A stretch of DNA of 64,000 nucleotides from Pseudomonadota bacterium (GTDB lineage Bacteria; Pseudomonadota; Alphaproteobacteria; UBA2136; JAPKEQ01), in contig JAYZXF010000002.1 of the NCBI GenBank assembly GCA_036141575.1, positions 9,536 to 73,535 of the forward strand, written 5' to 3'. This document shows positions 7,054-54,693 of the stretch, piece after piece (positions within the stretch are counted from its first letter, which is position 1; each line of letters begins with the position of its first letter). The position numbers and the translations under genes were made by a program. The notes under the pieces were generated by a model. That model was not told the origin of the DNA. It worked only from the letters and a program-made list of their open reading frames with translations, and searched no databases.

Positions 7054-7058
7054 AGGGG

Positions 7059-7988
7059 TTATTTCACCATTGTTTCGATAAATTCAATAATAGGAGTGGC
7101 CGTATCAATGCCTGTTGTTTTCTCAATACCGTTTAGGCCTGGAGAAGAGTTCACCTCAAGCACAACAGGGCCGTTTTTAGAGCGCAGCATATCTACACCA
7201 GCGACATTAAGGCCGAGTGATTTTGTGGCTTGTATAGCTGTTTGAATCTCTTCTTTAGAGAGTTCAACATTGCCAGCGCTACCACCACGGTGGAGATTTG
7301 AACGGAAGTCACCATCTTTGGCTTTACGTTTCATGCCTGCAATGACTTTATCACCCACAACAAAGCAGCGAATGTCTTCACAGTTGGCTTCTTTCACAAA
7401 CTCTTGCACCATTAGGTTTACCTTAAGGTCCATGAAGGCTTCAATCATGCTGATGGCTGTTTTACGGTCATCCATGAGGAAGACACCGTTACCATGTGTC
7501 CCTTCTAGAAGTTTGACAACAAACTGCTCTTGCTGCATTTGCTCCATAATGTGTGGTAGGTCATCTGGGTTATGGGCAAACCATGTTTCAGGCATGCCAA
7601 TACCATCACGAGAGAGGAGTTGTAGTGCACGTAGTTTGTCGCGTGAACGAGAAATAGCAATGGAGCGGTTTACACTGTGTACGCCCATCATTTCAAATTG
7701 GCGAAGTACGGCTGTTCCGTAAAATGTAATTGAGGCGCCAATGCGCGGAATAATCGCATCAAATCCTTCAAGAGATTCGCCTTTATACACAACAGATGGG
7801 TTGTTGCTTGAAATGTTCATGCTACAGCTGAGCGTGTTGATGATATGCATATCATGTCCACGAGCGCGGCCTGCATCAACAAGGCGGTTTGTTGAGTAAA
7901 TTTTAGGGGCAACAGAAAGCACGCCAATTTTAAGCGGTTTTTTAGCTTTTGTTGGGTTGCTTTTAATAAAATCAAACATGTGTGTCAT
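7059..7988 (-). CDS. rimK: RimK-family alpha-L-glutamate ligase (ATP-grasp).
   Basis: ATP-grasp fold sequence with an N-terminal pre-ATP-grasp region and RimK-like length (~300 aa). Confidence 0.85.
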
Positions 7989-8499
7989 CCAGTTGGTAAC
8001 GCTTAGATTGAAGCGTTATGCAGTGTTCAAGTTGTGGCGTGCCCATAAGGTGGGCAAATGTTGGGCTCACAAGACAAGCTTTACCAAGTGAGCTGCGGCC
8101 AAAGAGCATGCGGTAAGTCATATCTTTACGCGATGTGAGGGTGATATCAATTGGCCAACGGTACGGGCCAACATGCACCCAAGTCAGAATCACGTAGCGT
8201 GTGTTTGTTTTACCGTTGGAGCTGGTGATTTCACGTTTATCGAGAATTTTTGCTTCGCACGTGAGTTCTTCTTTGCGGTTTTTGCGGTTAGGGTGCGTAA
8301 TAAAGCGAACCCACTGCTCACCATCTTTTTCAAATGGGGTAATCTTTTCAGCATGCAGAGAGGACGTCTTTGCGCCTGTATCAATTTTGGCTTCGAGAGC
8401 CTCAATGCCGAGTTTAGGGAGTGCGACTGTTTCCACCCATCCCACCATTACTTGTGGGAATCTTGGCGGCTTGAGCGCTTGTGTCTTTTTCGTAGTCAT
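7972..8499 (-). CDS. RimK-associated retropepsin-like aspartyl protease (ATP-dependent zinc protease family, DUF785).
   Basis: About 175 aa, immediately upstream of and overlapping rimK. The family is routinely paired with RimK. The start is taken at an internal Met (MTTKK...). Confidence 0.7.
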
Positions 8500-13888: not shown

Positions 13889-14575
13889 TTAGAGTGAAAT
13901 TTTACCAATTAAAGTTGGAACCGCTGTATCTGCTTTAAGGATGAGGCGGCCAAGAGAAATTGGAATGATATGTTTTTGATCCATAAGGAAGGCTTTTTCA
14001 GCATCTGAAAAACCACCTTCAGGGCCAACTAGAAAACCATGACCTTCTGTGTAAGTTGGGCGCTCCTTAGCGCTGTCTTCGCGCTCAGCTGCCCAGAAAA
14101 TAGTACTGTCAAAATTTGAAATAGTCTCTTGCAGGTTTGTTACTGCGTGTACCGTTGGCACATCAAGGCGTTCACATTGTTCTGAAGCTTCAACACAAAT
14201 CAGCTGAGCACGCTCAGGCTTGGTTTTATCTCTGTCTGCAAAGTCAGTTTTAATCGGGTGGATATCTGTCACGCCTAGCTCTGTGGCCTGACGAAGAATA
14301 GTTTCCCATGCATCGCGCTTAGGGAGCCCCATAAACAGGTGCTTTTTAGGTTGGAAGGTCTGTGCCTCAAGTTGCTTTTTAAGTTCCACAGTCTTTAAAT
14401 TGTCATGGTTCAGCTCAGCAAGCCAAAGGCCATCTTTACCATTCCACAGGTGAATGGTATCTCCGCGAGAGAGACGCAGCACTTTTTTTAGGCGGTGCCT
14501 TAAAGGGTCAGGCAGAGGAAAACTCTGCCTGGCCTTATAATCACCTTCAATAAAAAAGCGAAGTGCGTGACCCAT
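13889..14575 (-). CDS. rsmE: 16S rRNA (uracil1498-N3)-methyltransferase, RsmE family.
   Basis: RsmE-like PUA and SPOUT regions (GFLVGPEGGFSDAEKAFL...IPISLGRLILKADTA). The start ATG overlaps the pfkB stop by 1 nt (TAATG). Confidence 0.75.
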   Translation of the reverse strand: MGHALRFFIEGDYKARQSFPLPDPLRHRLKKVLRLSRGDTIHLWNGKDGLWLAELNHDNLKTVELKKQLEAQTFQPKKHLFMGLPKRDAWETILRQATELGVTDIHPIKTDFADRDKTKPERAQLICVEASEQCERLDVPTVHAVTNLQETISNFDSTIFWAAEREDSAKERPTYTEGHGFLVGPEGGFSDAEKAFLMDQKHIIPISLGRLILKADTAVPTLIGKISL

Positions 14576-15558
14576 TAAGCTACGTTTTCGTAAAGGTGTG
14601 CGCCGACGTGTGGGTAACGGCCACCAAATTGTTGCACAACCATGCTTGCAATGGCGTGGCCTTGCTTCAAGCACTCTGCAATGGGTTTGTCTTGAAGGAA
14701 TCCATCTAGAAAGCCTGCAAGGAAAGCATCGCCAGCGCCTGTTGTGTCGAGGACTTCAGCAACAGGTGGGCAAGGTTCAAATGTTTTGTTGCCTTCGCTA
14801 TCGAGGAAGCTTGCACCTTTTTCACCATGTGTCACAAGGCGAGGTGTTTTTTGAAGTTTTTGTGCCAGTAGATCTGCGGCTTCATGTTTGTAGTTTTCCG
14901 CAGCATGAATAAGGGCGCGGTATTCATCTTCGTTACCAATAATAAGATCGACGTGACCAATCACTTCTTCAGCAAGGTGGTCAAAAGCCACATCCATAAC
15001 CGCAACAGTGGCCAGTGTCATCGCAATTTTAAGGCCTGCATTACGGGCTGTTTGAATTGATTCTTTCACAGCGTTAACTTGGTTCGGATCAAGAAGCAGG
15101 TAGCCTTCAACAAAGAGCCAGTCGCTTTCTGTAATCAGATTATGTGGAACAAAATCTGCCGTCATTGGGGCAGGGATACCCGTTGTTGCGAATGTGCGCT
15201 CACCATTCGGTGTAACCAGTACACGAATCTCCATAGATTTTTTGCCAGCTTCAGGCTTTGGCATTGTGATGCCAGCGCTCTCCATGCTGTTAAAGAACAT
15301 GTTGCCGGCTTTATCATCACCCACGCGGCCAATAAAGTTTGCTTTGTGGCCGAGCATACCAAGAGACCATGTTGTGTTTGCAACGGCGCCACCTGGGCAC
15401 AGGGTTTCTTCGCCACATTCGTTTTGTATGCGGTGAATTGTATCTGCATCTGTCCCTTGAAAATCACCAAGCTTAAGGCCGTACTCAGAAATTTTTTCGA
15501 GAGGTGATTCTTGAAGGATGTCGATAGGAGAGTTTCCCATAAATGTTGCTTTTTGCAT
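14575..15558 (-). CDS. PfkB-family carbohydrate/nucleoside kinase (adenosine kinase-like).
   Basis: PfkB signatures are present: VDTTGAGDAFLAGFL and a GG dipeptide region. Confidence 0.8.
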   Translation of the reverse strand: MQKATFMGNSPIDILQESPLEKISEYGLKLGDFQGTDADTIHRIQNECGEETLCPGGAVANTTWSLGMLGHKANFIGRVGDDKAGNMFFNSMESAGITMPKPEAGKKSMEIRVLVTPNGERTFATTGIPAPMTADFVPHNLITESDWLFVEGYLLLDPNQVNAVKESIQTARNAGLKIAMTLATVAVMDVAFDHLAEEVIGHVDLIIGNEDEYRALIHAAENYKHEAADLLAQKLQKTPRLVTHGEKGASFLDSEGNKTFEPCPPVAEVLDTTGAGDAFLAGFLDGFLQDKPIAECLKQGHAIASMVVQQFGGRYPHVGAHLYENVA

Positions 15559-15862
15559 GTGTGTCCCTTTCACATTCATCTTAAGGCATGAGGAATGTAG
15601 CAAATGGGGAAGAGGGGGGCAAATATTTTAAACCCCTGGCCTTGGCCCCTTTCGCTCGCGAAGTCCATTGGTGATAGAGGCAAGCAGGCCAAGCCCAGAG
15701 GCTTAACATCCTCATTGTGGCGCAATGTGAAATGCTTTTGCAAGGGAAGAAAGATTTTTGTCCGACCAAATTGACACATGTTGTTGCATACATGACACAA
15801 AAAAGCCCCCGTGATGGGAGCTTTCCTGTTGAATCTAAAGATAGATTACTTCGATTTAGAAC

Positions 15863-24114: not shown

Positions 24115-24657
24115 CTAGTGGAAGCGTGATGCTTTTTGCATTGCACCTTTAAGGGTGTCCTCTAGTGTGCTTGAGCGCGATAAGTTAAAAGAGGCCTTAT
24201 GATGCGTGCCTCCAAAAATGGAATGGAACTCTTCCATATCTGTAACCATGCTCTCAAGGTAGCGGTTTTTGGGGGTGCCTTCAGGGTAACCAAAGGCCAG
24301 GCGGTCAGGGCGCAATGCTGAGATAAAGCCATGCTCTACATTGGTTGTAAAGGCTGGCATGGTTTCAAGTTCACGCGGAACCCAAACAACAACGCAGGCT
24401 GAGGCTGCAAGGGCAGTCCATTCCCATTTGACCTGAGTGTCATAGTCATTGGCCCAGCCACCGCCACGGGCTTCAGGAATGAAAACAGTGCCAGTAAATC
24501 CAAGCTCTTTTAGAATCTTTAGCGCTTCAGGGCGCCAAGAAGCCACGTTCTTTTCGTCACGAGGCGTAGGGCCTGCAAGAAAGATGCTGTTTGGTGTTGT
24601 CGGAACAGGACGTAGAGTTTCATCCATAATCGTTTCAGGGACGTACACAATTTGCAT
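24115..24657 (-). CDS. Nucleoside 2-deoxyribosyltransferase-like (NDT/SLOG-like fold) hypothetical protein.
   Basis: Start at MQIVYVPE. The pattern SIFLAGP...WR...VVVWVP...FTTNVEHG resembles the NDT-like Rossmannoid family. This assignment is by eye only. Confidence 0.55.
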   Translation of the reverse strand: MQIVYVPETIMDETLRPVPTTPNSIFLAGPTPRDEKNVASWRPEALKILKELGFTGTVFIPEARGGGWANDYDTQVKWEWTALAASACVVVWVPRELETMPAFTTNVEHGFISALRPDRLAFGYPEGTPKNRYLESMVTDMEEFHSIFGGTHHKASFNLSRSSTLEDTLKGAMQKASRFH

Positions 24658-24735
24658 AGTTCTTCTCCTTGTAAACATTAAAAAAGATGCCGTATACGGT
24701 ATGTGTACGGCATCTTACGTAGAATGGCAAGCTTG

Positions 24736-36694: not shown

Positions 36695-37666
36695 TTAGCC
36701 CGCCTTAAGCATGTGCTCAGCTTCCTTGTTCTCAAGGTAGCGACCAGCATCAAGAGCGGCCATGCAACCAAGGCCAGCAGCTGTGACAGCTTGACGGTAT
36801 GTGTCATCACATACATCACCTGACGCGTAAACACCTTTAAGGTTTGTTTCAACTTTACCAGCTGGAACAGTAAGGTAGCCGTACTCATCCATGTCTAGTT
36901 TGCCAACAAATAGGTCTGTGTTTGGCTTGTGGCCAATGGCAATAAAGATACCTTGAATGGCAACATCTGTTGTGTCGCCAGTCTTCACGTTTTTCACACG
37001 CACTGCTTCAACACCGCCCATTGGGCCATCGCTGCCAAGGATTTCTTCAGTTGTGCTATCCCAAAGGATGTTAATTTTTTCGTGTGCTTTTACGCGCTCA
37101 CGTAGAATCTTTTCACCACGGAAATCATCACGACGGTGAATCATTGTCACGCTCTTACAGAAGCCAGCAAGGTAAAGCGCTTCTTCCATTGCTGTGTTAC
37201 CACCACCAACAACGGCAACGTCTTGGTTACGGAAGAATGAGCCATCACATGTCGCGCAGGCACTTACACCTTTACCCATGAACTTTTGCTCACTTTCAAG
37301 GCCAAGCCATTTTGCGCTGGCGCCTGTTGAGATGATAAGGGCGTCTGTTGTGTAAGTTGTACCGCTGTCACCAATCAGTGTTTGAATGCCGCCATCAGTC
37401 AGTTTCACTTCAGTGATGTAATCTGTAATCATTTGAGTGCCACAGTGTTCAGCTTGTTTGTGCATTTGTTCCATGAGCCATGGGCCTTGAATCACATCTG
37501 CAAAACCAGGGTAGTTTTCTACCTCAGTTGTAATGGTCAGCTGACCACCTGGCTGCATGCCGTGAATAAGGGCTGGGTTGTGGCCGGCGCGCGCTGCGTA
37601 AATTGCTGCTGTACATCCAGCAGGGCCACTACCAAGAATAATCATTTTGTGATGTTGTGTGCTCAT
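36695..37666 (-). CDS. trxB: Thioredoxin-disulfide reductase.
   Basis: FAD and NADPH motifs (IILGSGPAG; GGGNTAMEEA) and the redox-active CATC. Confidence 0.9.
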   Translation of the reverse strand: MSTQHHKMIILGSGPAGCTAAIYAARAGHNPALIHGMQPGGQLTITTEVENYPGFADVIQGPWLMEQMHKQAEHCGTQMITDYITEVKLTDGGIQTLIGDSGTTYTTDALIISTGASAKWLGLESEQKFMGKGVSACATCDGSFFRNQDVAVVGGGNTAMEEALYLAGFCKSVTMIHRRDDFRGEKILRERVKAHEKINILWDSTTEEILGSDGPMGGVEAVRVKNVKTGDTTDVAIQGIFIAIGHKPNTDLFVGKLDMDEYGYLTVPAGKVETNLKGVYASGDVCDDTYRQAVTAAGLGCMAALDAGRYLENKEAEHMLKAG

Positions 37667-37946: not shown

Positions 37947-38570
37947 GTGTCAAAAATGAGCTTTATGATTGGCCATAAATTCCCATCTGTACGCGTTGGC
38001 GCGGTGAACCCAGATGGTAACATCGATAATGATTTTTCTGTAACTGAATACGGTAAGGGCGGCTACACGGTTGTTTTCTTTTACCCACTAGACTTCACAT
38101 TTGTGTGCCCAACTGAAATTGTTGCGTTCCACAAAGCTGTTAAGCAATTTGAAGAGCGTGGCTGTAAAGTTGTTGCTGCAAGTGTAGATAGCACATTCTC
38201 ACACGCTGCATGGCGCCGTACACCACTCAACGATGGTGGTATTGGTGAAGTTGACTTCCCAATGGTAAGTGACATTGAGCGTAAACTATCAAGCGAGCTT
38301 GGTATTCTTGCTCCTGGTGGCGTAACGTACCGTGCATCTTACCTACTTGATAAAGATGGTGTTGTGCGTCACATGGTGATCAACGATCTTCCACTTGGTC
38401 GTAGCGTAAACGAAATGCTTCGTATGGTTGATGCGCTTGCATTCCACGAGCAGCACGGTGAAGTTTGCCCAGCAAACTGGAAGAACGGTGAAGAAGCGAT
38501 TACTGCTGACCGTGAAAGCACTGGTGCTTACCTTGCGAAAAACGAAAGCTCGCCAACGGCAGCTGCATAA
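37947..38570 (+). CDS. ahpC: Typical 2-Cys peroxiredoxin (AhpC/Prx1 family).
   Basis: The peroxidatic motif FTFVCPTEI and the C-terminal resolving Cys region. Confidence 0.85.
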   Translation: MSKMSFMIGHKFPSVRVGAVNPDGNIDNDFSVTEYGKGGYTVVFFYPLDFTFVCPTEIVAFHKAVKQFEERGCKVVAASVDSTFSHAAWRRTPLNDGGIGEVDFPMVSDIERKLSSELGILAPGGVTYRASYLLDKDGVVRHMVINDLPLGRSVNEMLRMVDALAFHEQHGEVCPANWKNGEEAITADRESTGAYLAKNESSPTAAA

Positions 38571-38582
38571 GTTTGATGCATT

Positions 38583-38613
38583 AAAAATCCCCGCTAGATG
38601 CGGGGATTTTTTT
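38583..38613. terminator. Rho-independent terminator after ahpC (bidirectional).
   Basis: The sequence aaaaaTCCCCGCtagatGCGGGGAttttttt. Confidence 0.6.
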
Positions 38614-38627
38614 GTAGGGACTCAAGC

Positions 38628-39050
38628 TTATTTACGTGATTCAAACGCCTTTTTGATCGCTTGCGTAAATGTTGGGTAGATGAATGTGTGTTCTGCAATT
38701 TCATCTTCACCAATCCAAGTCATATCTTCATGCTCTTCACTTAGAACGGGGGCAATATCACCGCTCAGTGTTGCTGTGTAAAAGACAGCGTATTTAGAAA
38801 CAGCTTCACTGCTCCATACACCTGCATGGCAGATACCGTCTGGCTGAATATCTAGGCCAGTTTCTTCTTTCACTTCACGCAGGAGACCGCCTTTAGGCTG
38901 GTCATGTGCTTCCATGCGTCCACCTGGGAATGCCCACTTACCGCCACTCTCTGAGTAACGCTTAGGGATTTGAAGAGCCAGTACTTTGTTCTCATCGTTA
39001 AAGATCAGTGCGTACTGGCGAACATTAAACATGTGATACGCTTTAGCCAT
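38628..39050 (-). CDS. NUDIX hydrolase (140 aa).
   Basis: The Nudix box is GGKWAFPGGRMEAHDQPKGGLLREVKEETGL. Confidence 0.75.
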   Translation of the reverse strand: MAKAYHMFNVRQYALIFNDENKVLALQIPKRYSESGGKWAFPGGRMEAHDQPKGGLLREVKEETGLDIQPDGICHAGVWSSEAVSKYAVFYTATLSGDIAPVLSEEHEDMTWIGEDEIAEHTFIYPTFTQAIKKAFESRK

Positions 39051-39087
39051 TTTTTACTTCTTTCTTTGTCAGTTTCTTACTTTAATT

Positions 39088-40140
39088 TTATTGGATGCGC
39101 TCAATGAGCATCTCTGCGCCATGCAGTGGAGAAACATCAAGGCTTTGGCCTGCGTTCCCCATGTTAATGGCAAGTTCTACAAAACGCTCATCCCAGTTTA
39201 CAGCAAAGGTGCTACCGAGATAGAGAAGAGGTTCGCCAGCTTTCATGTCTGCGAAGACATTTTTAGCAGGGAACGTCATTTGGCGTTTTAAAAATGGAAT
39301 CTGGAATTTTGCCGTATTGGGCTTGCTGATGCGGTACCTTGCGCCTTCAGCAACAATGCGGTCAAAGCTCTTCTGGTCAATAGAGAAGCTGGTTTTGATG
39401 TTACCAGCCGTGTTGTCTCTAAAGACTTGGAATCTTGCAACTTGGCCAACCTTAGAAGGCAAGCGAGAAATGTTTTGTGCGTAAGCAGGTTCTAGAATTG
39501 TATCTGGCTCATCCAGTGCAAGGCTTTCTGGGTGAACACCACCTGCAATGAGGCCTGCGACAACGGCAAACAGGTCACGACCATGGAAGGTGTGCGGCAG
39601 AATATATGTTGGGCTGCCTGTACGTGTGCGCTCTAAATGTTCAATAAATGGAATATCAATTTTGTAAATGGTGTAGCCAATGCCGCGAGACTCAAAGTAG
39701 CGTGCCATTAGACCGAGTGATCCGTTGTTTGGGCCAATGAACACATTGTGCTCATCTGTTACAAGAATGGTTCTGTCTTTCCCGAATCCAACGCCCGGGT
39801 CAGTCACGTGAATGAAAATGTTAGGGCGCGTGTTGCTGCCTAGAGCGCGGTAACATGTGTAGTTTGCATAAGCTGCAAAATCAATATTACCAAATGGCAC
39901 GTTGTGAATAGATGTTGGAACAAATGGGCGCTCTCTGTAGATGTAGTCTTCAATCCAATCTGCAGGTTTAAGACGTCTATCAATGTTGGTGAGTTTGCCT
40001 TTAGCTAGCTCTTGTGTTGTATAGAGAAAAACGTTTTGAAAGCGCAGTTCGATTTGAGCGTTTGCCACACCACAGTTAAAGTCTGTGATCAGCATCATAT
40101 TCTTATAGAAAGGTACCTTTGCTTCTTTAAGAGCTGGCAT
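39088..40140 (-). CDS. SAM hydroxide adenosyltransferase-like protein (DUF62; fluorinase/chlorinase-homologue family), 350 aa with an insertion.
   Basis: Family motifs are present: MLITDFNCG, IHVTDPGVGFG, THGRDLFAVVAG. Confidence 0.6.
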   Translation of the reverse strand: MPALKEAKVPFYKNMMLITDFNCGVANAQIELRFQNVFLYTTQELAKGKLTNIDRRLKPADWIEDYIYRERPFVPTSIHNVPFGNIDFAAYANYTCYRALGSNTRPNIFIHVTDPGVGFGKDRTILVTDEHNVFIGPNNGSLGLMARYFESRGIGYTIYKIDIPFIEHLERTRTGSPTYILPHTFHGRDLFAVVAGLIAGGVHPESLALDEPDTILEPAYAQNISRLPSKVGQVARFQVFRDNTAGNIKTSFSIDQKSFDRIVAEGARYRISKPNTAKFQIPFLKRQMTFPAKNVFADMKAGEPLLYLGSTFAVNWDERFVELAINMGNAGQSLDVSPLHGAEMLIERIQ

Positions 40141-40194
40141 ATTCTTTTATAACCCCTTGTTTCATCCCTTTAAAATATAGGGGTGTCATAAAGG

Positions 40195-41721
40195 TTATGC
40201 AAGGGGCAGGTGGATAGTAAAGCATGTTCCGTAGTTATGCTCGGTACGTAATGTGATATTTCCGCCCATTTCTTCAAGAATACGCTTAGTTGTTGGTAGA
40301 CCGAGACCTGTACCACCTGACTTAGTTGTGTAAAATGGTTCAAACAGGCGCTCTACAATATCGCCCGGAATTGGATCACCTTCGTTATGGACATCAATAC
40401 AGAAGTCTTTATCTGTTTGGTGTAGCGTAATTGTAATCATGCTTTCTGGTGGTGCTGCATCAAAGGCATTTTTGGTAATGTTTAGGATGGCTTGCATGGT
40501 TTTATTGCGATCGATAGCAACTCTTTGGTGGCTCTCTTTACCAATAATATTCACAAATACATCTTTGTTTGAACCGAAAGATTCAATGGATGGTATGGCT
40601 TGATCTATAATTTCTTGTGCTTCAACGTGTTCAATCGTGTTTGGGCGGTTCGCTGTGAAGGAAAGAATCCCTGTGAGCATGTTTTCTAGGCGAAGGATTT
40701 CCTTTTTAACAAGCCGAGCGCGCTTTTGATCGTTTGGTAAAGAGGCCAGTTTTTCAAGTTTTTCTACACCAATTTTAATGGAGGCAAGAGGGTTTCTGAG
40801 TTCGTGTGCAATGCTGGAGGCAAACTCACCTACAGCAGCAAGTCTTTCATGTTGAACCAGCTGTTTTTGTGCGGCTTGTAAATCAGTTGTACGTTCGTCT
40901 ACAAGCTCTTCAAGATAATCTGCATGCTTGGCGAGTTTTTCATCACGCCTATTAATGAAAGAGAACAGCGTGTTAATCTGATCTGAAAGAGATTGCATTT
41001 CTGATGAGCCAGAGGCTGGGATTTTGGTCTTAAAGTCATCTTTTTGAATGGCTTCAGCAAGTGTTCTTGTAAGCCTCTGAACGGGCTGAATGAAAGCTTT
41101 TAAACAAATGAGGACGAGAACAATTCCAATAAAAAAAATGACAGATGGTAAAGTCATGTAGCCCCAGTTTTTTACACCTTCATAGAGAGGGGAAGATTCA
41201 AAAGAGAGGCGCTCATAAGCAATAAAGTGGATATCTAGAGGTGCGTAGTATGTAATAAGGGCGTAACCGCCTTGCTCACCTATTAATTTAAAAGGCTCAA
41301 TGCTGCTGTTTTTATGAAGCAGGTGTTCTTGAATGTTGGCATACTTTAGGGTGCGGCTTTTTTCAGGGTAAGTTGCCAGAACGCGCTTTGCTTTTGTATC
41401 AATAAGCATGAGTCCGCTTGTCGGCGAAAGAGAGAGAAGGGAGAGCTCATTTGATAGAGCTCTATTGATGTACTCTTTTTTGTCTTTATAGGCAGACCCT
41501 GTTGGACGCTCTTCTGTTTTCCAACGTGCAGAAAGGAGGCTTCGACCGTATTGCAGGGCACTTGAAAGCGTTTTGTTTGTGTCAAGCTGGTACTGGTGCT
41601 CAGCTTGTTTATAAAAAGTCGCAACACTGACACTGTAAAAAAGACCCATTAATAGGGCAATGGGTAGAAATACACTGATAAAAAGTGGGATTTTACCTCG
41701 AAATAAATTTTTTGGTGCCAA
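40195..41721 (-). CDS. Membrane-bound sensor histidine kinase with no adjacent response regulator (orphan).
   Basis: Two TM segments flank a periplasmic region. It has a HAMP-like region, an H-box (SIAHELRNPLASI) and HATPase_c (GGTGLGL). It has a TTG start. Confidence 0.8.
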   Translation of the reverse strand: MAPKNLFRGKIPLFISVFLPIALLMGLFYSVSVATFYKQAEHQYQLDTNKTLSSALQYGRSLLSARWKTEERPTGSAYKDKKEYINRALSNELSLLSLSPTSGLMLIDTKAKRVLATYPEKSRTLKYANIQEHLLHKNSSIEPFKLIGEQGGYALITYYAPLDIHFIAYERLSFESSPLYEGVKNWGYMTLPSVIFFIGIVLVLICLKAFIQPVQRLTRTLAEAIQKDDFKTKIPASGSSEMQSLSDQINTLFSFINRRDEKLAKHADYLEELVDERTTDLQAAQKQLVQHERLAAVGEFASSIAHELRNPLASIKIGVEKLEKLASLPNDQKRARLVKKEILRLENMLTGILSFTANRPNTIEHVEAQEIIDQAIPSIESFGSNKDVFVNIIGKESHQRVAIDRNKTMQAILNITKNAFDAAPPESMITITLHQTDKDFCIDVHNEGDPIPGDIVERLFEPFYTTKSGGTGLGLPTTKRILEEMGGNITLRTEHNYGTCFTIHLPLA

Positions 41722-42139
41722 GGTCTTGCCTTTTTATGGTTATTTTTTGCACAATAAGCCTACATATGGAGCAAGAATCTAACAAGGCGAAAATTTATAA
41801 GGGTCTCATTTGTTTAGAGGCTGATTCTCGTGTGGGGCCGAAGTTTTGGTACCAAACACCCAATGTCTCGTTTACACCATTTCCAATTTCAGCTTTGCAA
41901 GGTTTAGGCATGGGCGTGTTGCATGGGTCTGGCAGAAAGGTTGTGACAGCGCAGTTATCAGACCACCGTATTGTAGTGAACCTTGCTAGGAGTGATTGTC
42001 TGTCTCTGCAAGTGAAAGGGCTGTGGCACAGTGAGTTTCCAGCTCTGCCATTTAGCGTAAATAAAACCGTTTATACAGAGCGTCCACAAGGCTTTGAATA
42101 TGACAGTGCACTAACGCTTTCCAAACTGGGACTTTTGGT

Positions 42140-42245
42140 GTAAGGTGCAGCTCACCAAGGACGGACGCAGCGCACTGTAAACCCCGCCAGGCCCGAAAGG
42201 GAGCAACGGTAGCAAAAGCGGGTGGGTCGTCCTTGGCCTTTTTCT
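42140..42245 (+). ncRNA. ffs: Signal recognition particle RNA (4.5S RNA, ffs), small bacterial type.
   Basis: A long hairpin (CCAAGGACG...CGUCCUUGG) encloses the conserved domain IV-like core CCAGGCCCGAAAGGGAGCAACGG with a GNRA loop. It ends in a T-run. Confidence 0.7.
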
Positions 42246-42541
42246 TTAGGGTGCTTTTTGCACTTTGCCTCACTTAAGCACGTTTTGTGCTCTGCGTTCG
42301 TTAAAGGCACAAAAACCTCTCCTAAAATTTTTTAAATTAAGCCTGTGCGAGTGGGAGCAAGTGCGACCCAAAAGGCTCAGGCCTTTTGTTGCTGGTCCGC
42401 AAGGTAATGCTACGCTCGAGCGAGAGCGAGGCGGGCAAGCTAAATATAAGTAAAGCAGGTTGTGGCAGTTAGGGCTTTCGTGTGCAAGGCACTGTCTCTA
42501 AGCACAAAAAAAAGCCCCCTTTCGGAGGCTTTGGGGATCGT

Positions 42542-43114
42542 TTAAAAATACCCAAGGGTACGCGCTTTTTTGAGGATGCGCAGATCTTCACGAAAAGCGA
42601 GCTTGTCATCTTTGGCATATTGCACAACTTCAGAGAAAGTGAGCCACTCAAGTGGATCCATTTCATCAGAAGGGGCGGCCATTGCGGCTTCTTCATCACT
42701 GAGCACATATACAAAAACACAGATAATATTATGGGTTTCTGCGTGGTGTTTGGTTTTGACATGGTGATGAATCTTGGGTGCTTTCTTTTCTTCTAGAAGC
42801 ATGAGGGCGTCAGGGTCAATGGCAATGTGACACTCTTCAAGAATTTCACGTGCAGCGCCTTCGGCAAAGCTTTCGGCAACTTCAGGCTCGATATAACCAC
42901 CCATGAGAGAGTAAAGCCCGTGGCGTTCAAGAAAGGGAGCGCGTTTGCCCATGAGAACTTTACCGTCATGAATCAGTACATTAATGGTGGCTGCGTTAAA
43001 TCCGCCCCATTGGTTCATGTGCTGAATGCTATGTCCAGTGAGAAGAGAAGAGATAAAGCAGGCCAGTTTGTAGCGTTTGCTATTGGGGTTAAGGGGTCTT
43101 TGAGACCACGACAT
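42542..43114 (-). CDS. NUDIX hydrolase (190 aa).
   Basis: The Nudix box is GGYIEPEVAESFAEGAAREILEECHI. A terminator hairpin plus T8 lies just downstream, at about 42505-42540. Confidence 0.7.
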   Translation of the reverse strand: MSWSQRPLNPNSKRYKLACFISSLLTGHSIQHMNQWGGFNAATINVLIHDGKVLMGKRAPFLERHGLYSLMGGYIEPEVAESFAEGAAREILEECHIAIDPDALMLLEEKKAPKIHHHVKTKHHAETHNIICVFVYVLSDEEAAMAAPSDEMDPLEWLTFSEVVQYAKDDKLAFREDLRILKKARTLGYF

Positions 43115-43269
43115 GGCGTATCCTTTGAAAACGGGAAGGAAAGGTAGTTGATAGGCTTAGTTTACTGGTTTTAGGCGTGAGATACAGTAAAAATCTTGAA
43201 ATATCCTACAAAATCCCTATAACCAATAAGTATATTAACTCTATTTGTTCCGTTTTTATGGAGAATTGA

Positions 43270-43458
43270 ATGGATAGCAGCATTCTTGCTTTTGTTGCTT
43301 TTCTTGCTCTGTTGGCTATATTCTGGCTTATTCTTTGGGAAGTTGCAGGTCGAATTTTTAGGTTTTGGCCGTTTCGTTTGGTTCTGGCTTTGTGTCTGAT
43401 CCCTGTATTCCCTTGGGTTTGCCTTGTGTATCTTTTCATGTCAAAGAACAAGAAATAA
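43270..43458 (+). CDS. Small two-TM membrane protein (62 aa), PLDc_N-like (phospholipase_D-nuclease N-terminal small-protein family).
   Basis: Two hydrophobic helices and a C-terminal IPVFPWVCLVYLF motif followed by basic residues. A terminator lies downstream (GGGCGtaaaaaGCGCCCtcttttc). Confidence 0.5.
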   Translation: MDSSILAFVAFLALLAIFWLILWEVAGRIFRFWPFRLVLALCLIPVFPWVCLVYLFMSKNKK

Positions 43459-44568: not shown

Positions 44569-45744
44569 ATGAACCTACACGAGTATCAATCAAAAGAACT
44601 CATGAAGAAATTTGGCGTAGCCGTACCGAATGGTATTATGGCTGACAGCCCAGAAGCTGCGGAAGCTGCTGCAAAAGAGCTAGGAACAGCAATCACTGTT
44701 GTTAAAGCTCAAGTGCACACGGGTGGCCGTGGTAAAGCGGGTGGTGTGAAGGTGTGTAAATCACCAGCTGAAGCAAAAGAAGCTGCTAAAGCAATGCTTG
44801 GCGAAATTCTTGTGACAAAGCAAACAGGCCCACAAGGCTTGCCTATTCATAAAGTATACGTTGAAGAAGGTAGCGACATTGCAAACGAGCTTTACTTCTC
44901 AATCATGCTAGACCGCGAAACTTCTCGCCCATTCATTATGGCATCTTCTGAAGGTGGTATGGACATTGAAGAAGTGGCTGAAGAAACACCTGAGAAAATC
45001 CTAAACGTAGATATCGATCCTATGGTTGGCCTTATGCCTTACCAAGCACGTGATCTTGCGTTTGGTATGGGTCTAGAAGGTGAGCAAATTAAGAACTTTT
45101 CTAAAGTGGCAATGGGCCTATGGAAAGCGTTTGATGCCCTAGATGCAGACATGCTTGAAATTAACCCACTTGTTGTGACGGGCGATAACAAGGTTCTTGT
45201 CCTTGATACAAAGCTTGCTATTGATGGGAACGCACTATTCCGTCACCCTGATCTTGCTGACATGGATGATCACACACAGCAAGACTCTAAAGAAGTTGAA
45301 GCACACAAATACGACCTAAACTACGTGGCTCTAGACGGTACAATTGGTTGCATGGTAAACGGTGCTGGCCTTGCGATGGCGACAATGGACATTATTAAGC
45401 ACTACGGTGAATCTCCAGCGAACTTCCTAGACGTTGGTGGTGGCGCAACAGAAGAAAAAGTAACAGCTGCGTTTAAGATCATTCTATCTGATCCAAACGT
45501 AAACGGTATTCTTGTGAACATCTTCGGTGGCATCATGAAGTGTGATGTGATCGCAAAAGGTGTGGTCGCTGCAGCGAAAGAAGTACAGATTTCTGTACCA
45601 CTTGTTGTGCGACTAGAAGGTACAAACGTTGATGCTGGTAAGAAGATTCTATCTGAATCAGGTCTGCCAATTACACCAGCGGATAGTCTAGACGACGCTG
45701 CCAAGAAGATCATCGCAGAAGTGCGTAACGCGAAAGCTGCGTAA
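44569..45744 (+). CDS. sucC: Succinate--CoA ligase (ADP-forming) beta subunit.
   Basis: An ATP-grasp N-terminal domain plus a CoA-ligase C-terminal domain, with a canonical sequence. Confidence 0.9.
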
Positions 45745-45800
45745 GTAGAATATGTGTTGGCGGAGGGTGAAAGCTCTCCGCCTCTATTAAAGAAAATATA

Positions 45801-46526
45801 ATGAAGACTTATTTACAGTTCTTAAACGAATCGTCTTTTAAAGATCAGGTGAGCATTGGTTCGCAGGTTTATCGTAACCTTGCGTTTTGTAACGTAATGC
45901 ACATGTTGTTTTTAGCGTTTGCTATGTCTGTATGTGTCGTTGCGGCTTACTTTGCACCCGGATTTGTATCAGGTGTTGTAAGTGGAGTTTTGATTACATT
46001 GACGCATGACCATGTTGATCTAGGGTGGACTTTGTCTGGGCTGCAAACAACAATTCTTGCGATTATATTTTCGTCATATTTTATTTACCGATTTGCTATT
46101 GCTGTCTTGGGAAGTATTAGGTTTCTCTATTTTAGATTTAAAAACTTTAATATTAAAAGGCCAGGGCTTCTTACTTTATTGTATTACGGTTCTATTTTGT
46201 TTGTAAGTGGAGTTGTTGGGGGGATGGTTTATTGGGAATCAGATGCTTTTGAATATACGGAATCTATATATTTACTGCTTGTTATTATGCTAGCATTAAG
46301 TGTGTTTTATGCTGTGGTGGCAGTTGTGACAAACTTTAAACCATTACGTGTGTTAAACAAGGAGGATGAGCTTCTTCCTGAGGAGTTTAAGTTCTCTGGC
46401 GCGGTTCTTGTCTTTGGAGTTATTCTTGCGGTTATAGTTGTTATTTCATCATTGTTAGATGTTGCGAATATAGCTCAAGAAATTAGAGACTTTCATATTG
46501 AAATAGGGGGATATAGCGATGATTAA
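45801..46526 (+). CDS. Hypothetical polytopic membrane protein (241 aa), AT-rich, inserted between sucC and sucD.
   Basis: 5-6 TM helices with no recognisable family. Codon usage is visibly AT-richer than sucC and sucD. Confidence 0.65.
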
Positions 46527-47190
46527 AAATATCATTTTTGATTGTGATGGGGTTTTGGTGGATACCGTAACGCCGCACTATCAGATTATGTCTGAGTATC
46601 TGACGGGGCACGGCATTACTATGACGGCTGCTGAGATTGTCGCTGAGTTTAGCGGGGCGATGTGGACGTCGTTCTTCCCTGTTCTTGAAGAACGCTTTGG
46701 TGTCACACTTCCTGAAACGGTTTATAATGATCTGCGTGATGCAATGCTTGAATATGACCATACGGTGGGCCTGGAAGCATGCACGGATGTAGAAAAGCTT
46801 CTGCGTGAACCATCTCTTAAGAAAGCTTGTGCATCTAACTCGAGAACGCCAACAGTTAAAGAGCACATCTCTAACCATGGTTGGGATGATGTATTTGAAA
46901 CAGTTGTGGGTGTGGATTTGATTGAGAATCCAAAACCTGCGCCAGATCTTTACTTGATGGCCTTGAGAGAAGCTGGCTTTGAGGCACACGAAACTGTGGT
47001 GATTGAAGACAGTCCAACAGGTGTGAAGGCTGGTAAAGCGGCAGGCATGCAGGTAATAGCTTACACAGGGGTATATCCAGATAAAGCAGAGCGTACTGAG
47101 CTGATGAAAGCAGCTGGCGCAGACTGGGTGATGGATGACTATAATGAAATTTTAACATTTTTAACGGAAGCTGCTGTTAAAGCGGCCTAA
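46519..47190 (+). CDS. HAD-superfamily hydrolase (beta-phosphoglucomutase-like subfamily IA).
   Basis: The HAD motif I is IIFDCDGVLVDT. Later motifs are also present (SNSRT; IEDSPTGVKAGKAAGMQVIA). It overlaps the upstream ORF by 8 nt. Confidence 0.75.
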   Translation: MIKNIIFDCDGVLVDTVTPHYQIMSEYLTGHGITMTAAEIVAEFSGAMWTSFFPVLEERFGVTLPETVYNDLRDAMLEYDHTVGLEACTDVEKLLREPSLKKACASNSRTPTVKEHISNHGWDDVFETVVGVDLIENPKPAPDLYLMALREAGFEAHETVVIEDSPTGVKAGKAAGMQVIAYTGVYPDKAERTELMKAAGADWVMDDYNEILTFLTEAAVKAA

Positions 47191-47208
47191 TAATAAAAGG
47201 GAAAGACT

Positions 47209-48090
47209 ATGTCTATCTACATTGATAAAGATACAAAAGTAATTTGCCAAGGTTTCACTGGTCAGAACGGTACGTTCCACAGTGAGCAGGCGGTTAAGTA
47301 CGGTACAAAAATGGTTGGTGGTGTAACACCAGGTAAGGGCGGCACAACGCACCTTGGTCTGCCAGTATTTAACACAGTGAAGGAAGCGGTAACAGCAACA
47401 GAAGCAACAGCATCTGTAATCTACGTACCACCTCCATTTGCAGCGGATGCAATCCTTGAAGCGATTGACGCAGGTATTGAGCTTGCGATCTGTATTACTG
47501 AGGGTATCCCTGTAAAAGATATGATTAAAGTAAAAGCGCGTCTTCAGCGTAGCGACTGTAAAACACGCCTCATTGGCCCGAACTGCCCAGGTGTGATTAC
47601 ACCAGAAGACGATGCAGGCTGTAAGATTGGTATTATGCCAGCACACATTCACAAAAAAGGTAAAATCGGTATCGTATCACGCTCTGGTACACTGACTTAT
47701 GAAGCGGTTGCACAAACAACAGCTGAAGGTCTTGGCCAGTCGACTTGTGTAGGTATCGGTGGTGACCCTGTGAACGGCACAAACTTCATCGATGTCCTTA
47801 AAGAGTTTCAAAATGATCCTCAAACTGAAGGTATTGTGATGATTGGTGAAATTGGTGGTACAGCAGAAGAAGAAGCGGCTGCTTTCATTAAAGCAAACGT
47901 AACCAAACCTGTTGCTGCATTTATCGCCGGTTCTAGCGCACCTAAAGGTAAGCGCATGGGCCACGCTGGTGCGATCGTTTCTGGTGGTCAAGGTACTGCT
48001 GAAAGTAAGGTTGAAGCTCTAACTGATGCAGGTGCGAAAATCGCTCCAACGCCATCTGATCTAGGTAAGACTATTGCTAGCATGATGTAA
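47209..48090 (+). CDS. sucD: Succinate--CoA ligase alpha subunit.
   Basis: A CoA-binding and active-site His region (SRSGTLTYE; GHAGAIV). Confidence 0.9.
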
Positions 48091-51898: not shown

Positions 51899-52408
51899 CT
51901 AAAGGCCTAAAACGCCTTTGGTAAAGAAGTAATCAAACGCTTGTTTGTAGCCAGCCTTACGCATCTCTACAGTGTTTTCCTGAATCCATTCTGGTTTGAC
52001 CCATTTAAAGTTAGAGAACTCTTTATCTTGGGCTTTTGAAAGATCAATGTCCTCTTTACTACCATTAAACTTGAAGAAGAACCAAAGATGGCGAGCGCCT
52101 TTAAGGTGGGCATACTGTGGTTTGCGTTGGTCACGATCAGGTCTGTTTTCAGCAGGCCAATCATACCATGTCCAAAATGGGGTTTGTGTGAGAAGAGTGA
52201 TATCTGCCTCTTCAATGGCCGTTTCTTCAAACAGTTCACGAATGGCACCTGCAAGAGGTTCCTCACCTTCATCAATGCCGCCTTGTGGTAGTTGCCATGC
52301 ATCTGCGACATCAGAACGCTCTGCAACAAATACATTGGCACGCTCATCCATGAGGACAACAATAGCACCTGGTCTGTAAGCTTCCATAAGGTCGTGTGGT
52401 TGATTCAT
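51899..52408 (-). CDS. rppH: RNA pyrophosphohydrolase (NUDIX; RppH/NudH).
   Basis: A Nudix box (GGIDEGEEPLAGAIRELFEETAI) and RppH-like length. It is in conserved alphaproteobacterial synteny next to the ctpA cluster. Confidence 0.8.
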   Translation of the reverse strand: MNQPHDLMEAYRPGAIVVLMDERANVFVAERSDVADAWQLPQGGIDEGEEPLAGAIRELFEETAIEEADITLLTQTPFWTWYDWPAENRPDRDQRKPQYAHLKGARHLWFFFKFNGSKEDIDLSKAQDKEFSNFKWVKPEWIQENTVEMRKAGYKQAFDYFFTKGVLGL

Positions 52409-52411
52409 GAC

Positions 52412-53437
52412 TTACTCCTTTAAAAGAGTTGTGATTGGAACAAGCTGTACGCCCGCCGGGAGTGTTTTTACCCATGCTGCAATGGCAGCAGTTGTTTCTG
52501 GGTATGGGTGCCCAATCGCAATTGCTGAACCGTTTTGTTGTGCTTGCTTAAGCGTTTCTGCAAGAGCTTGGTTGATGCGTACACTGTCTTGGTAGTGATC
52601 AAGAAAGACATCACGTGTGAGCAGAGGAAGAGGAAGATCTTTTGCTGCAGCTTTGACGCGACTCTGAGCTGTTGTGAGACTATCTAGGAAGAAGAGCTTG
52701 TGATCTGAAATGGCACGCAGTGCAGGGCGCATGGCTTTTTCACTAGAGGTCATTTTAGAGCCCATGTGGTTATTCGCGCCAACAGCAATTGAGAGGAACG
52801 GGGTAATGTTCTCAACAGTTCTCTTGTAGAGTTCGTCTTCTGGTAGCTCTACGTAAAGTGCATTTTCGCCTGGGTTAGGTGTGTAGCCTTCTGCATTGGT
52901 ACGTGCTTCCATTGGAATATGAACCATAATTTCTTGGCCGCGCTTATGGGCAAAGTCTGCTTGCTTCATGCTGCCATTACCGTATGGCAGGAAGGCAAGA
53001 GTCACTTCTTTCGGAAGTTCATCTAGAACGCGTTGACTTTCAGAAACATTGACGCCCATATCATCAATAACAATGGCAATTTTAGGGCCGTTTAGCACTT
53101 TGACATCAGCCATATTTGCTTCATAGCGCGCTTGTGATTCCTTTGCAGGTTCAAACGGGAGCATGTTGCCTTCAATTAAAGTGTTGAGGCTTGGCAGTGC
53201 CGTTGCCGAAACTTGTGAGAGTGTTTCTTTTGAAAGAGGAGGGCTGTAGAAAGGGATCCTCTGTAGCGTTTGTACAGATGGGTTGTTCTCAGCCTGTGCA
53301 GTTGCTTGTTCTTTTTGTCCGAAGTAAAAGGCAGAAGCAACGCATGCTACAAAGAGAAGCACACCCAGAGTGCTTGCAATAACAAGTCTCAGGGTGTGCG
53401 GTTGTTTGGGTGCAGGGTTTACGACTTCTTCGACCAT
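52412..53437 (-). CDS. Divergent polysaccharide deacetylase family protein (YibQ-like).
   Basis: An N-terminal TM segment and a YibQ-like domain (IAIVIDDMG...AFLPYG...HIPME). Confidence 0.75.
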   Translation of the reverse strand: MVEEVVNPAPKQPHTLRLVIASTLGVLLFVACVASAFYFGQKEQATAQAENNPSVQTLQRIPFYSPPLSKETLSQVSATALPSLNTLIEGNMLPFEPAKESQARYEANMADVKVLNGPKIAIVIDDMGVNVSESQRVLDELPKEVTLAFLPYGNGSMKQADFAHKRGQEIMVHIPMEARTNAEGYTPNPGENALYVELPEDELYKRTVENITPFLSIAVGANNHMGSKMTSSEKAMRPALRAISDHKLFFLDSLTTAQSRVKAAAKDLPLPLLTRDVFLDHYQDSVRINQALAETLKQAQQNGSAIAIGHPYPETTAAIAAWVKTLPAGVQLVPITTLLKE

Positions 53438-54693
53438 AGTTCCAGTGCTTTCACCATATCAATGGCACGTTCAAGTTGGTAGTCGTAAGGGCGTTCGTCT
53501 TTTTTGTCTTTCTTATCTTTAGAAGATAGTTTTTCACCAGCTTCTTCCAGCATCTTCTCAAGCTCAATGTGGCCTTTAAGAGAGGCTTCAGATGGGCGGT
53601 CAGATACATCAACGTCTTCAACTTTTAGAGGTTTCACTTCGATGTCTGGCTCAATACCTTTGGCTTGGATAGAACGGCCAGATGGTGTGTAGTAAAGTGC
53701 CGTTGTGAGGCGCATACCAGAGTTACCTGGGAGCTGCATAATTGTTTGTACAGACCCTTTACCAAAAGACTTTGTTCCAAGAACAAGTGCACGGTTATGG
53801 TCTTGTAGGGCGCCTGCAACAATCTCTGAAGCAGATGCGCTACCGCCGTTGATCAGAACAACAATTGGAGCGCCTTCCATAACATCGCCAGAGCGTGCGT
53901 TATAACGCTGGTTTTGGTTTTCAATGCGGCCACGTGTTGAAACAATTTCACCTTGCTCTAGGAACGCATCAGAGGCAGCAACAGCTTGTGACAGAAGTCC
54001 ACCAGGGTTGTTACGTAGGTCAAGAACAAGGCCTTGTAGTGGCTCGCCTTCGTTCTCTTTTTTCAGGTCATTTAGGTGTTTTTTAATTTGCTTACCAACA
54101 TGCTCGTTAAACGTTGTGATACGTAGGTAGCCAACACCATCACGTTCTAGGCGAGACTTCACAGGAATAATTTTGATGATGTCACGTGTGATTGTGATGT
54201 CCATCGCTTTACGCTCAGACTCACGGAAAACTTTAAGCTTAATGTCGCTACCGACTTTACCGCGCATTTGGTCAACAGCTTCTGAAAGAGTTTGGCCTTG
54301 TACGTCTTTACCATCAATTTGGATGATGAGGTCACCAGCTTCAACGCCAGCTTCATAGGCAGGTGTGCCTTCAATTGGCGAAACCACTTTAACAACACCA
54401 CGGTCCATTGTGACCTCAATACCAAGACCACCAAACTCACCTTTAGTTTGCTCAGTCATAGATTTCATCGCGTCTTCTGGGAGGTAAGAAGAGTGTGGAT
54501 CGAGGGCTGTTAGCATGCCTTCAATGGCATCTTCTACAAGAGTTGTGTCTGAGATTTCATCCACGTAGCTTGTTTTAATTCGGTCAATGACATGCGTCAT
54601 AATATCGAGCTTTTCATAGAGCTCTTTGTTATCAACTGCATGTGCAGAAAGTGTAAGCAGGGATGCAAAACCAATGGTGGCAAGTAAACGCAT
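53419..54693 (-). CDS. ctpA: Carboxyl-terminal processing protease (S41 family).
   Basis: A signal peptide, a PDZ domain and an S41 catalytic region (GGSASASEIVAGALQD; SFGKGSVQ). Confidence 0.85.
   Translation of the reverse strand: MRLLATIGFASLLTLSAHAVDNKELYEKLDIMTHVIDRIKTSYVDEISDTTLVEDAIEGMLTALDPHSSYLPEDAMKSMTEQTKGEFGGLGIEVTMDRGVVKVVSPIEGTPAYEAGVEAGDLIIQIDGKDVQGQTLSEAVDQMRGKVGSDIKLKVFRESERKAMDITITRDIIKIIPVKSRLERDGVGYLRITTFNEHVGKQIKKHLNDLKKENEGEPLQGLVLDLRNNPGGLLSQAVAASDAFLEQGEIVSTRGRIENQNQRYNARSGDVMEGAPIVVLINGGSASASEIVAGALQDHNRALVLGTKSFGKGSVQTIMQLPGNSGMRLTTALYYTPSGRSIQAKGIEPDIEVKPLKVEDVDVSDRPSEASLKGHIELEKMLEEAGEKLSSKDKKDKKDERPYDYQLERAIDMVKALELWSKKS

Follow-up and report, generated by a model that had tools for sequence, protein, structure and literature searches.

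A Long-form DUF62 Protein with the Hydrolase-type Asp-Arg-His Triad and Its Conserved Gene Neighbourhood in an Uncultured Alphaproteobacterial Lineage

RESULTS

Organization of the Locus

DUF62L, a 350-residue homolog of the DUF62 hydrolases of S-adenosylmethionine (SAM), is encoded in a 64-kb window of alphaproteobacterial DNA (the window being the whole stretch that was analysed), within a focal stretch, positions 38628 to 43458, that was studied together with its flanking genes. The protein has the DUF62 fold and the catalytic triad of the hydrolase branch, and its gene is the second of three in a probable minus-strand operon that begins with an orphan sensor histidine kinase and ends with a MutT-like NUDIX hydrolase, NUDIX140. 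The features of the region, with a further NUDIX gene located elsewhere in the window, are as follows.

36695-37666, minus strand: trxB, thioredoxin-disulfide reductase (TIGR01292, 387 bits against a cut-off of 343)
37947-38570, plus strand: ahpC, AhpC/2-Cys peroxiredoxin, convergent with the NUDIX140 operon (PF00578, E 5e-31, with 1-cysPrx_C)
38583-38611, both strands: bidirectional intrinsic terminator between NUDIX140 and ahpC (12-bp hairpin between an A-run and a U-run)
38628-39050, minus strand: NUDIX140, MutT-like NUDIX hydrolase of 140 residues, last gene of the probable operon (PF00293, E 3e-16)
39088-40140, minus strand: DUF62L, long-form DUF62/SAM hydroxide adenosyltransferase homolog of 350 residues (PF01887, 53.2 bits)
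40195-41721, minus strand: orphan membrane sensor histidine kinase of 508 residues, first gene of the probable operon (HisKA and HATPase_c)
41766-42143, plus strand: ORF125, conserved lineage-restricted hypothetical protein of 125 residues, divergent from the operon and ending just upstream of ffs
42154-42246, plus strand: ffs, small bacterial signal recognition particle (SRP) RNA (RF00169, 50.6 bits against a gathering score of 40)
42511-42532, minus strand: intrinsic terminator directly 3' of NUDIX190 (9-bp stem with 5 GC pairs, then a T-run)
42542-43114, minus strand: NUDIX190, second NUDIX hydrolase, 190 residues, monocistronic (PF00293, E 1.4e-11)
43270-43458, plus strand: 62-residue peptide with two predicted transmembrane segments (two hydrophobic segments)
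51899-52408, minus strand: RppH-like NUDIX hydrolase, NUDIX169 (NF001938, 109.3 bits against an equivalog cut-off of 116; PF00293, E 1e-20)

The three NUDIX genes, the DUF62 gene, the kinase gene, the SRP RNA, and the open reading frame (ORF) of 62 codons all lie where a previous sequence-only reading of this DNA had placed them; ORF125 was overlooked in that reading.

The gaps between the genes of the probable operon are 54 bp (kinase to DUF62L) and 37 bp (DUF62L to NUDIX140), and no terminator-like hairpin is present between any of the three, an arrangement that points to their co-transcription. The hairpin at 38583-38611 has a folding energy of -19.1 kcal/mol (z = -5.06), and none of 200 shuffled sequences folds as well. 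NUDIX190 and the peptide gene are parted from the operon by ffs, ORF125, and the strong terminator at 42511-42532, the peptide gene being on the far side of NUDIX190 and divergent from it; NUDIX190 is thus outside the DUF62L unit. A consensus promoter scan of the region found fewer sites than were found in shuffled sequences. All five protein-coding genes are under purifying selection in comparison with the closest relative, L096, with ratios of nonsynonymous to synonymous substitution (dN/dS) of 0.04-0.16; the values are 0.04 for NUDIX140, 0.07 for NUDIX190, and 0.16 for ORF125.

Identity, Fold, and Catalytic Residues of DUF62L

The N-terminal domain of DUF62L passes the PF01887 threshold (53.2 bits against a cut-off of 26.3, E 3.7e-14), and its C-terminal domain scores 24.7 bits with PF20257, just below the cut-off of 25.5. 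The sequence-only reading had assigned the protein to DUF62 and attributed its length to an insertion, and both statements hold; of the motifs that it cited, TDFNCG and HVTDPGVG are present (the former as part of ITDFNCG), but the one given as THGRDLFA is in fact TFHGRDLFA. The extra length arises mainly from an insertion of ~45 residues (residues ~30-78) that follows the first strand and helix, and there are smaller insertions in the C-terminal domain. The protein is predicted to be soluble, with no transmembrane segment.

A profile of 27 homologs matches the SAM hydrolase structures 2cw5, 2zbu, and 1wu8 in the PDB (E 4e-16 to 4e-14), and in an hhalign comparison with canonical DUF62 the alignment covers residues 74-339, including the C-terminal domain, with a probability of 99.9 and an E value of 2.9e-34. 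The AF2 model of DUF62L has a pLDDT of 88.6 and a pTM of 0.87, and when it was used as a Foldseek query, the best 30 PDB matches were all DUF62 enzymes (TM-scores 0.70-0.77, E down to 9e-15). Asp20, the ribose-binding aspartate, and Asp114, Arg123, and His186 are invariant in the 27 sequences of the subfamily; Asp114 and His186 align exactly with Asp68 and His127 of PH0463, and Arg123 is within one position of Arg75. The motifs associated with adenosine binding are also kept (DPGVG, GPNNG, FHGRD, and an FGN-type motif, GNxK), as is the C-terminal GS...ELAxN.

The Asp-Arg-His triad is strictly conserved in the hydrolase DUF62 proteins and absent from the fluorinase and chlorinase (PMC10491745). 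The name under which DUF62L is recorded at NCBI, "SAM-dependent chlorinase/fluorinase," is probably wrong or at least misleading, because the protein has the triad that the halogenases lack. Since the DUF62 fold, the ribose-binding aspartate, and the triad are all retained, DUF62L most likely hydrolyses SAM to adenosine and methionine, a substrate that we infer from these residues. The DUF62 enzymes that have been characterised are selective for (R)-SAM, the inactive epimer, which they hydrolyse (bioRxiv 10.1101/2025.08.29.672840), and, by analogy, the preferred substrate of DUF62L would likely be this spontaneously formed, inactive (R)-sulfonium epimer.

The Long-form DUF62 Clade

In an exhaustive search with a hidden Markov model (HMM), the long-form clade to which DUF62L belongs was found to be rare, with 39 clusters at E<=1e-30 as compared with 4708 DUF62 matches overall. 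The clade is bounded by a sharp gap, since E values of ~1e-53 are followed by a single match at 1e-33 and then by matches at 1e-28 and below. Most members have 370-450 residues, and those that carry an organism name come from metagenome-assembled genomes (MAGs) of Cyanobacteriota or Vampirovibrionales; the alphaproteobacterial members form one clade within the long-form DUF62 proteins in a distance tree. Two Melainabacteria-like members are encoded between divergent ftsEX and convergent glgP (L004, 7759-12805, and L095, 5957-11097), and this arrangement, present in two unrelated contigs, is a second conserved context of the long-form clade.

The N termini of long-form proteins vary. Several alphaproteobacterial members (the homologs P0008, P0014, P0016, and P0022) have Lys/Ala/Pro-rich tails of 20-45 residues that resemble histone H1, and the Melainabacteria-like proteins have N-terminal extensions of 40-100 residues; DUF62L of the window has neither the H1-like tail nor the long extension.

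A metagenome scan with the C-terminal, subfamily-specific alignment recovered one locus only (L090). The scan of genome contigs with the full subfamily alignment recovered mostly canonical DUF62 genes, L004 being the long-form locus among the matches listed, and 79 canonical DUF62 loci from that scan served as the negative control for gene neighbourhood.

Conservation of the Neighbourhood

Ten lineages were compared: the window together with its 80% relative L096, which were counted as one, and L084, L085, L086, L088, L090, L091, L092, L093, and L097. DnaX, where it was found, is 47-50% identical between them. ORF125 and ffs accompany DUF62L in 9 of the 10 lineages, trxB in 8, ahpC in 7, NUDIX140 in 5, and an orthologous histidine kinase in 3. 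The trxB orthologs (65-70% identity) lie within 4.5 kb of DUF62L, and the AhpC orthologs (63-81% identity) lie beside the DUF62 block; the best NCBIfam match of AhpC is NF011576 (peroxiredoxin C), at 224 bits and below the cut-off of 301. The flanks beyond the block vary from lineage to lineage.

The NUDIX140 ortholog is directly 3' of DUF62L on the same strand in L085, L088, L091, L092, and L096. The two genes overlap by 4 bp in L088 and by 1 bp in both L091 and L092 and are separated by 2 bp in L085. Because the distance tree places lineages with the linked NUDIX gene on either side of the deepest division of the alphaproteobacterial clade, in each of its halves, the DUF62L-NUDIX140 pair is probably ancestral and has been lost several times. 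In L097, trxB and DUF62L are on the same strand (6390-8401) with a 1-bp overlap at the start of DUF62L, and the contig, of 10 kb, has none of ORF125, ffs, ahpC, and NUDIX. The block has been rearranged here, and of its links only that between trxB and DUF62L survives. Among the 79 canonical control loci, NUDIX was found near one (at a distance of 9 kb), TrxB near one, and AhpC near none. The context of DUF62L, comprising the NUDIX gene, trxB/ahpC, and ORF125, is therefore specific to this clade.

The Partners of DUF62L in the Probable Operon

The Nudix box of NUDIX140 reads G-x5-D-x7-REVKEETGL, as compared with the reference pattern GX5EX7REUXEEXGU. Its best relatives in the PDB are of the MutT type (3grn, E 2e-10), and it passes no equivalog cut-off in NCBIfam, reaching 35 bits against the 148 required for MutT. 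NUDIX140 most likely removes an aberrant nucleotide.

The histidine kinase has two transmembrane segments separated by a periplasmic loop of ~150 residues, followed by HisKA and HATPase_c domains. Orthologs occupy the same position in L084 and L090 (35-36% identity) and in L096 (65%), and the gap between the kinase gene and DUF62L is 54 bp in the window, 3 bp in L084, and ~35 bp in L090. Searches of the 64-kb window for a receiver domain, by tblastn with three receivers, with a receiver HMM, and by Pfam on the ORFs scanned, found none, nor is there one near the orthologous kinases in L084, L090, and L096. The kinase had been described in the sequence-only reading as membrane-bound and without a nearby response regulator, and within these 64 kb it is an orphan. 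A convergent kinase in L092 was considered as an ortholog and rejected, the identity being 25% and limited to the catalytic core.

It should be noted that the predicted start of the L096 kinase is a downstream ATG, which makes that protein 11 residues shorter, and that the TTG start of the window kinase at 41721 leaves 44 bp to ORF125; for these reasons, the true start may lie further downstream.

ORF125 and the SRP RNA

ORF125 is located between the kinase gene and ffs, ending 10 nucleotides before the SRP RNA. In 9 of the 10 lineages a homolog, of 105-125 residues elsewhere, lies divergently upstream of DUF62L, and in all nine the SRP RNA is directly 3' of it; the SRP RNA of L096 scores 34 bits with RF00169. 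Only 16 relatives of ORF125 were found among 5.8 billion proteins, mostly on contigs that, as judged by their matching lengths, carry DUF62L, and 12 residues are invariant across the 16 homologs. The AF2 model has a pLDDT of 82, and there is no match in Pfam, in NCBIfam, or to a PDB fold. ORF125 is a real protein, and this conserved gene beside ffs defines a small orphan family. No conserved operator motif was found in the divergent intergenic region between ORF125 and DUF62L beyond the closest relative.

Neighbouring Genes outside the Operon

NUDIX190 has a Nudix box (REILEECHI) in which the glycine is shifted by 2 residues. No ortholog was found in the nine lineages other than the window and L096, and a NUDIX protein of 190 residues in L085, considered as a possible ortholog, has no similarity to it. 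The 62-codon ORF has a counterpart of 66 residues at the same position in L096 (42% identity). The two transmembrane segments attributed to the peptide in the sequence-only reading are present, but its assignment to PLDc_N is not upheld, since no Pfam or NCBIfam match, including PLDc_N (PF13396), was obtained even at E<=1; the two-transmembrane architecture is all that the ORF and PLDc_N proteins have in common. The peptide is probably real, fast-evolving, and of no known family. NUDIX190 and the peptide recur together in L096; neither was found at the nine more distant loci.

The NUDIX gene at 51899 had been designated rppH. Its five best NCBIfam matches are all RppH models, but it falls short of the equivalog cut-off and is best described as RppH-like. 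It has a context of its own, in which ctpA and a divergent polysaccharide deacetylase gene precede the NUDIX gene, and this is kept in L085 and L088; the gene is unrelated to the DUF62L block. The apparent clustering of three NUDIX genes in this region reflects no shared system.

Setting of the Window and the Host Lineage

GC content is flat across the window (0.42-0.48), and no mobility genes (integrase or transposase) are present among the ORFs scanned. Elsewhere the window encodes core housekeeping functions, as established from Pfam and NCBIfam scans of the ORFs and from synteny with L096: cytochrome oxidase genes, pheST, lepA, L20/L35, rsmB, rimK, mdh, sucCD, dnaX, recR, trxB, ahpC, ctpA, iPGM, nadD, rlmH, hemH, and atpA. 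The earlier description of the focal stretch as a "mini-island" is contradicted by the flat composition, by the lack of mobility genes, and by the conservation of the block across the 10 lineages.

SucC of the window is at most 72% identical to anything beyond its immediate relatives. The closest of these sequences are from MAGs labelled Pseudomonadota, Alphaproteobacteria, or "Magnetococcales" (70-72% identity), and identity to cultured Rhodospirillales/Kiloniellales is 63-64%. Because these values are so low, the host is placed in a deep, uncultured alphaproteobacterial lineage. The idea that it might be a Micavibrio-like predator sharing DUF62L with the Vampirovibrionales was rejected, there being no Micavibrio among the 120 best SucC matches.

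Several other features of the window were recorded. The sucC and sucD genes (44569-48090) are split by two genes, encoding a multi-transmembrane protein of 241 residues and a HAD hydrolase; the split is also present in L096, where the counterpart of the fast-evolving 241-residue protein is 26% identical. The mdh-suc cluster separates ffs from dnaX in this sub-lineage, and in four other lineages examined the two are adjacent. Rfam reports a match to Rickettsia sRNA47 (RF02800) at 53719-54018 on the plus strand, with 69.7 bits against a gathering score of 60. The match is inside, and antisense to, an ORF of 424 codons (53419-54693, minus strand) that corresponds in position to the ctpA-like S41 peptidase gene of relatives, and it may represent conserved coding sequence, not a small RNA. 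A PfkB-family kinase, possibly an adenosine kinase, is encoded at 14575-15603 and a nucleoside 2-deoxyribosyltransferase-like protein at 24115-24678, both on the minus strand; these genes could bear on adenosine salvage and are 15-25 kb from DUF62L and unlinked to it.

DISCUSSION

The explanation that best accounts for the observations, to which we assign a probability of roughly 0.6, is that the region is a vertically inherited block of core chromosome, as opposed to an island or a signalling module, and that it would carry a single three-gene operon in which the orphan kinase gene is followed by DUF62L and NUDIX140. Transcription would end at the bidirectional terminator shared with the convergent ahpC; the block has trxB/ahpC at one end and ORF125 with the SRP RNA at the other. 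DUF62L would then most likely act as a SAM-repair hydrolase, with specificity for the (R)-epimer by analogy with the characterised DUF62 enzymes, and NUDIX140 would most likely have a sanitising role in the removal of an aberrant nucleotide. Together with the neighbouring peroxiredoxin and thioredoxin reductase, they would constitute a setting of metabolite and oxidative damage control, a functional coupling of DUF62L, NUDIX140, and the redox genes that we infer from their association.

Several observations weigh against this explanation. DUF62L is far below the NCBIfam equivalog cut-offs for (R)-SAM hydrolases (63.4 versus 350 bits for NF058624 and 40.8 versus 470 bits for NF053629). The insertion breaks up its N-terminal substrate-binding segment, in which TDFNxGxxNAQ stands in place of the canonical TDFGxxDxxVG, and therefore its substrate could differ. 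NUDIX140 is not beside DUF62L in half of the lineages, nor the kinase in most of them, and the Melainabacteria-like long DUF62 genes, which are more numerous, lie in another context with no NUDIX, TrxB, or ORF125 (three loci). All 10 lineages form one alphaproteobacterial clade in the distance tree, and their shared ancestry inflates the neighbourhood counts. It should also be recognized that the damage-control theme is an interpretation, a reading of the annotations.

The main rival is synteny by descent, in which unrelated housekeeping genes have simply been kept together in a slowly rearranging clade and only ahpC and trxB are functionally linked; we regard this as rather unlikely. The derivation of all 10 lineages from a single clade is in its favour, and NUDIX140 and the orthologous kinase are absent, without replacement, from 5 and 7 of them, respectively. 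Canonical DUF62 genes elsewhere adjoin none of these partners, the Melainabacteria-like long forms are without all of them, and ffs-dnaX-ybaB-recR is itself an ancient arrangement. The tightness of the junctions, however, weighs against passive retention, since the stop and start codons of DUF62L and NUDIX140 overlap or are no more than 2 bp apart in four lineages, the kinase gene and DUF62L abut in L084, and trxB overlaps DUF62L even in the rearranged L097. Moreover, the outer flanks of the block are scrambled, and DnaX is only ~50% identical between lineages.

A different chemistry or substrate for DUF62L is improbable, whether as a halogenase, the activity that its NCBI name suggests, or as an adenosyl-transfer or hydrolytic enzyme that acts on another 5'-substituted adenosine while NUDIX140 processes a related nucleotide. 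The wide margin by which the (R)-SAM hydrolase equivalog cut-offs are missed and the sharp separation of the long-form clade from the rest of the DUF62 family are in its favour, as is the restriction of the NUDIX partnership to the alphaproteobacterial long-form clade. The insertion and the altered N-terminal motif also fall in a segment that we take to be the region contacting the methionine moiety in the FlA and SalL structures. On the other hand, the Asp-Arg-His triad, which the halogenases do not have, is invariant in the DUF62L subfamily, and DUF62L has kept every one of the adenosine-binding motifs as well as the C-terminal GS...ELAxN. A more elaborate version, speculative and doubtful, is that the long-form clade is a distinct enzyme in which the insertion remodels the methionine-side pocket; its target, shared with NUDIX140, would be an adenosyl compound that is not ordinary (R)-SAM and is either damaged or a signal, and control would be linked to thioredoxin/peroxiredoxin, with ORF125 as a divergent regulator and the kinase recruited in some lineages.

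The sequence-only reading had suggested instead that the enzymes cleaving SAM and nucleotides could form a nucleotide-signal processing module with the kinase and the small peptide; such a module might be of a defence or signalling type. The kinase is indeed co-oriented with and close to DUF62L in three lineages, three NUDIX genes are present within 14 kb, and NUDIX140 resembles PDC-S07, a PADLOC candidate that is a generic NUDIX. But no receiver was found in the 64 kb or close to the kinase gene of L084, L090, and L096, the orthologous kinase is missing from 7 of the 10 lineages (that of L092 not being an ortholog), and NUDIX190 and the peptide gene are separate units, beyond ffs and a terminator, that are not kept past the closest relative. 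The co-occurrence that was to be expected of the proposed five-gene module is found for DUF62L and NUDIX140 (5 of 10 lineages) but for NUDIX190 and the peptide in L096 only, and the RppH-like NUDIX is conserved in a setting of its own. The ORFs scanned in the 64 kb include no cyclase, no effector, and no further signalling gene. PADLOC recognises no system: its only real matches are that of the NUDIX protein, by generic similarity, to PDC-S07, a single-gene candidate, and one of the kinase that is negligible (E 0.006), and DUF62L, ORF125, and the peptide have none. The module is largely refuted by the neighbourhood data and is very unlikely.

The preferred explanation, that DUF62L is a putative SAM-repair hydrolase in a core-chromosome block, can be compared with several characterised systems. 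DUF62L has the same two-domain fold as the DUF62 SAM hydrolases (PF01887 and PF20257) PH0463, TTHA0338, MJ1651, StDUF62, and SaciSAMH, with TM-scores of 0.74-0.77 to 1wu8, 2zbu, and 2cw5, and it shares with them TDF, DPGVG, GPNNG, FHGRD, GNxKT, GS...ELAxN, and the Asp-Arg-His triad. These enzymes, however, have ~250-270 residues as compared with the 350 of DUF62L, which has insertions and an altered N-terminal motif, and canonical loci are without its NUDIX, trxB/ahpC, and ORF125 context. The fluorinase FlA and the chlorinase SalL have the same superfamily fold (Foldseek E ~1e-13, TM-scores 0.63-0.73), but they are only 15-16% identical to DUF62L and lack the triad (PMC10491745), and the DUF62L locus has no biosynthetic context. 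In Sulfolobus acidocaldarius, saci0718-0720 is an operon of a triphosphate tunnel metalloenzyme (TTM), a SAM hydrolase, and a nicotinamide mononucleotide adenylyltransferase (bioRxiv 10.1101/2025.08.29.672840). The conserved combination of a DUF62 gene with that of a nucleotide (pyro)phosphate hydrolase is a loose parallel, in gene order alone, to the DUF62L-NUDIX140 pair; the partner there is a CYTH/TTM protein and not a NUDIX, the organism belongs to another domain of life, and the DUF62 protein is canonical and short. NUDIX140, for its part, shares a near-complete Nudix box with the MutT-type house-cleaning enzymes and finds its closest matches among MutT-like structures and models, but the first glutamate of the box is replaced by aspartate and the MutT equivalog score is well short of the cut-off.

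None of these results overturns current understanding. It is only recently that the DUF62 enzymes were assigned a physiological role, in clearing the inactive (R)-epimer of SAM. This picture of metabolite repair would be extended by a rare clade in which the triad is kept, the insertion is large, and the gene shares an operon with that of a NUDIX hydrolase next to trxB/ahpC. DUF62L and NUDIX140 would likewise represent a concrete pair of enzymes to assay jointly.

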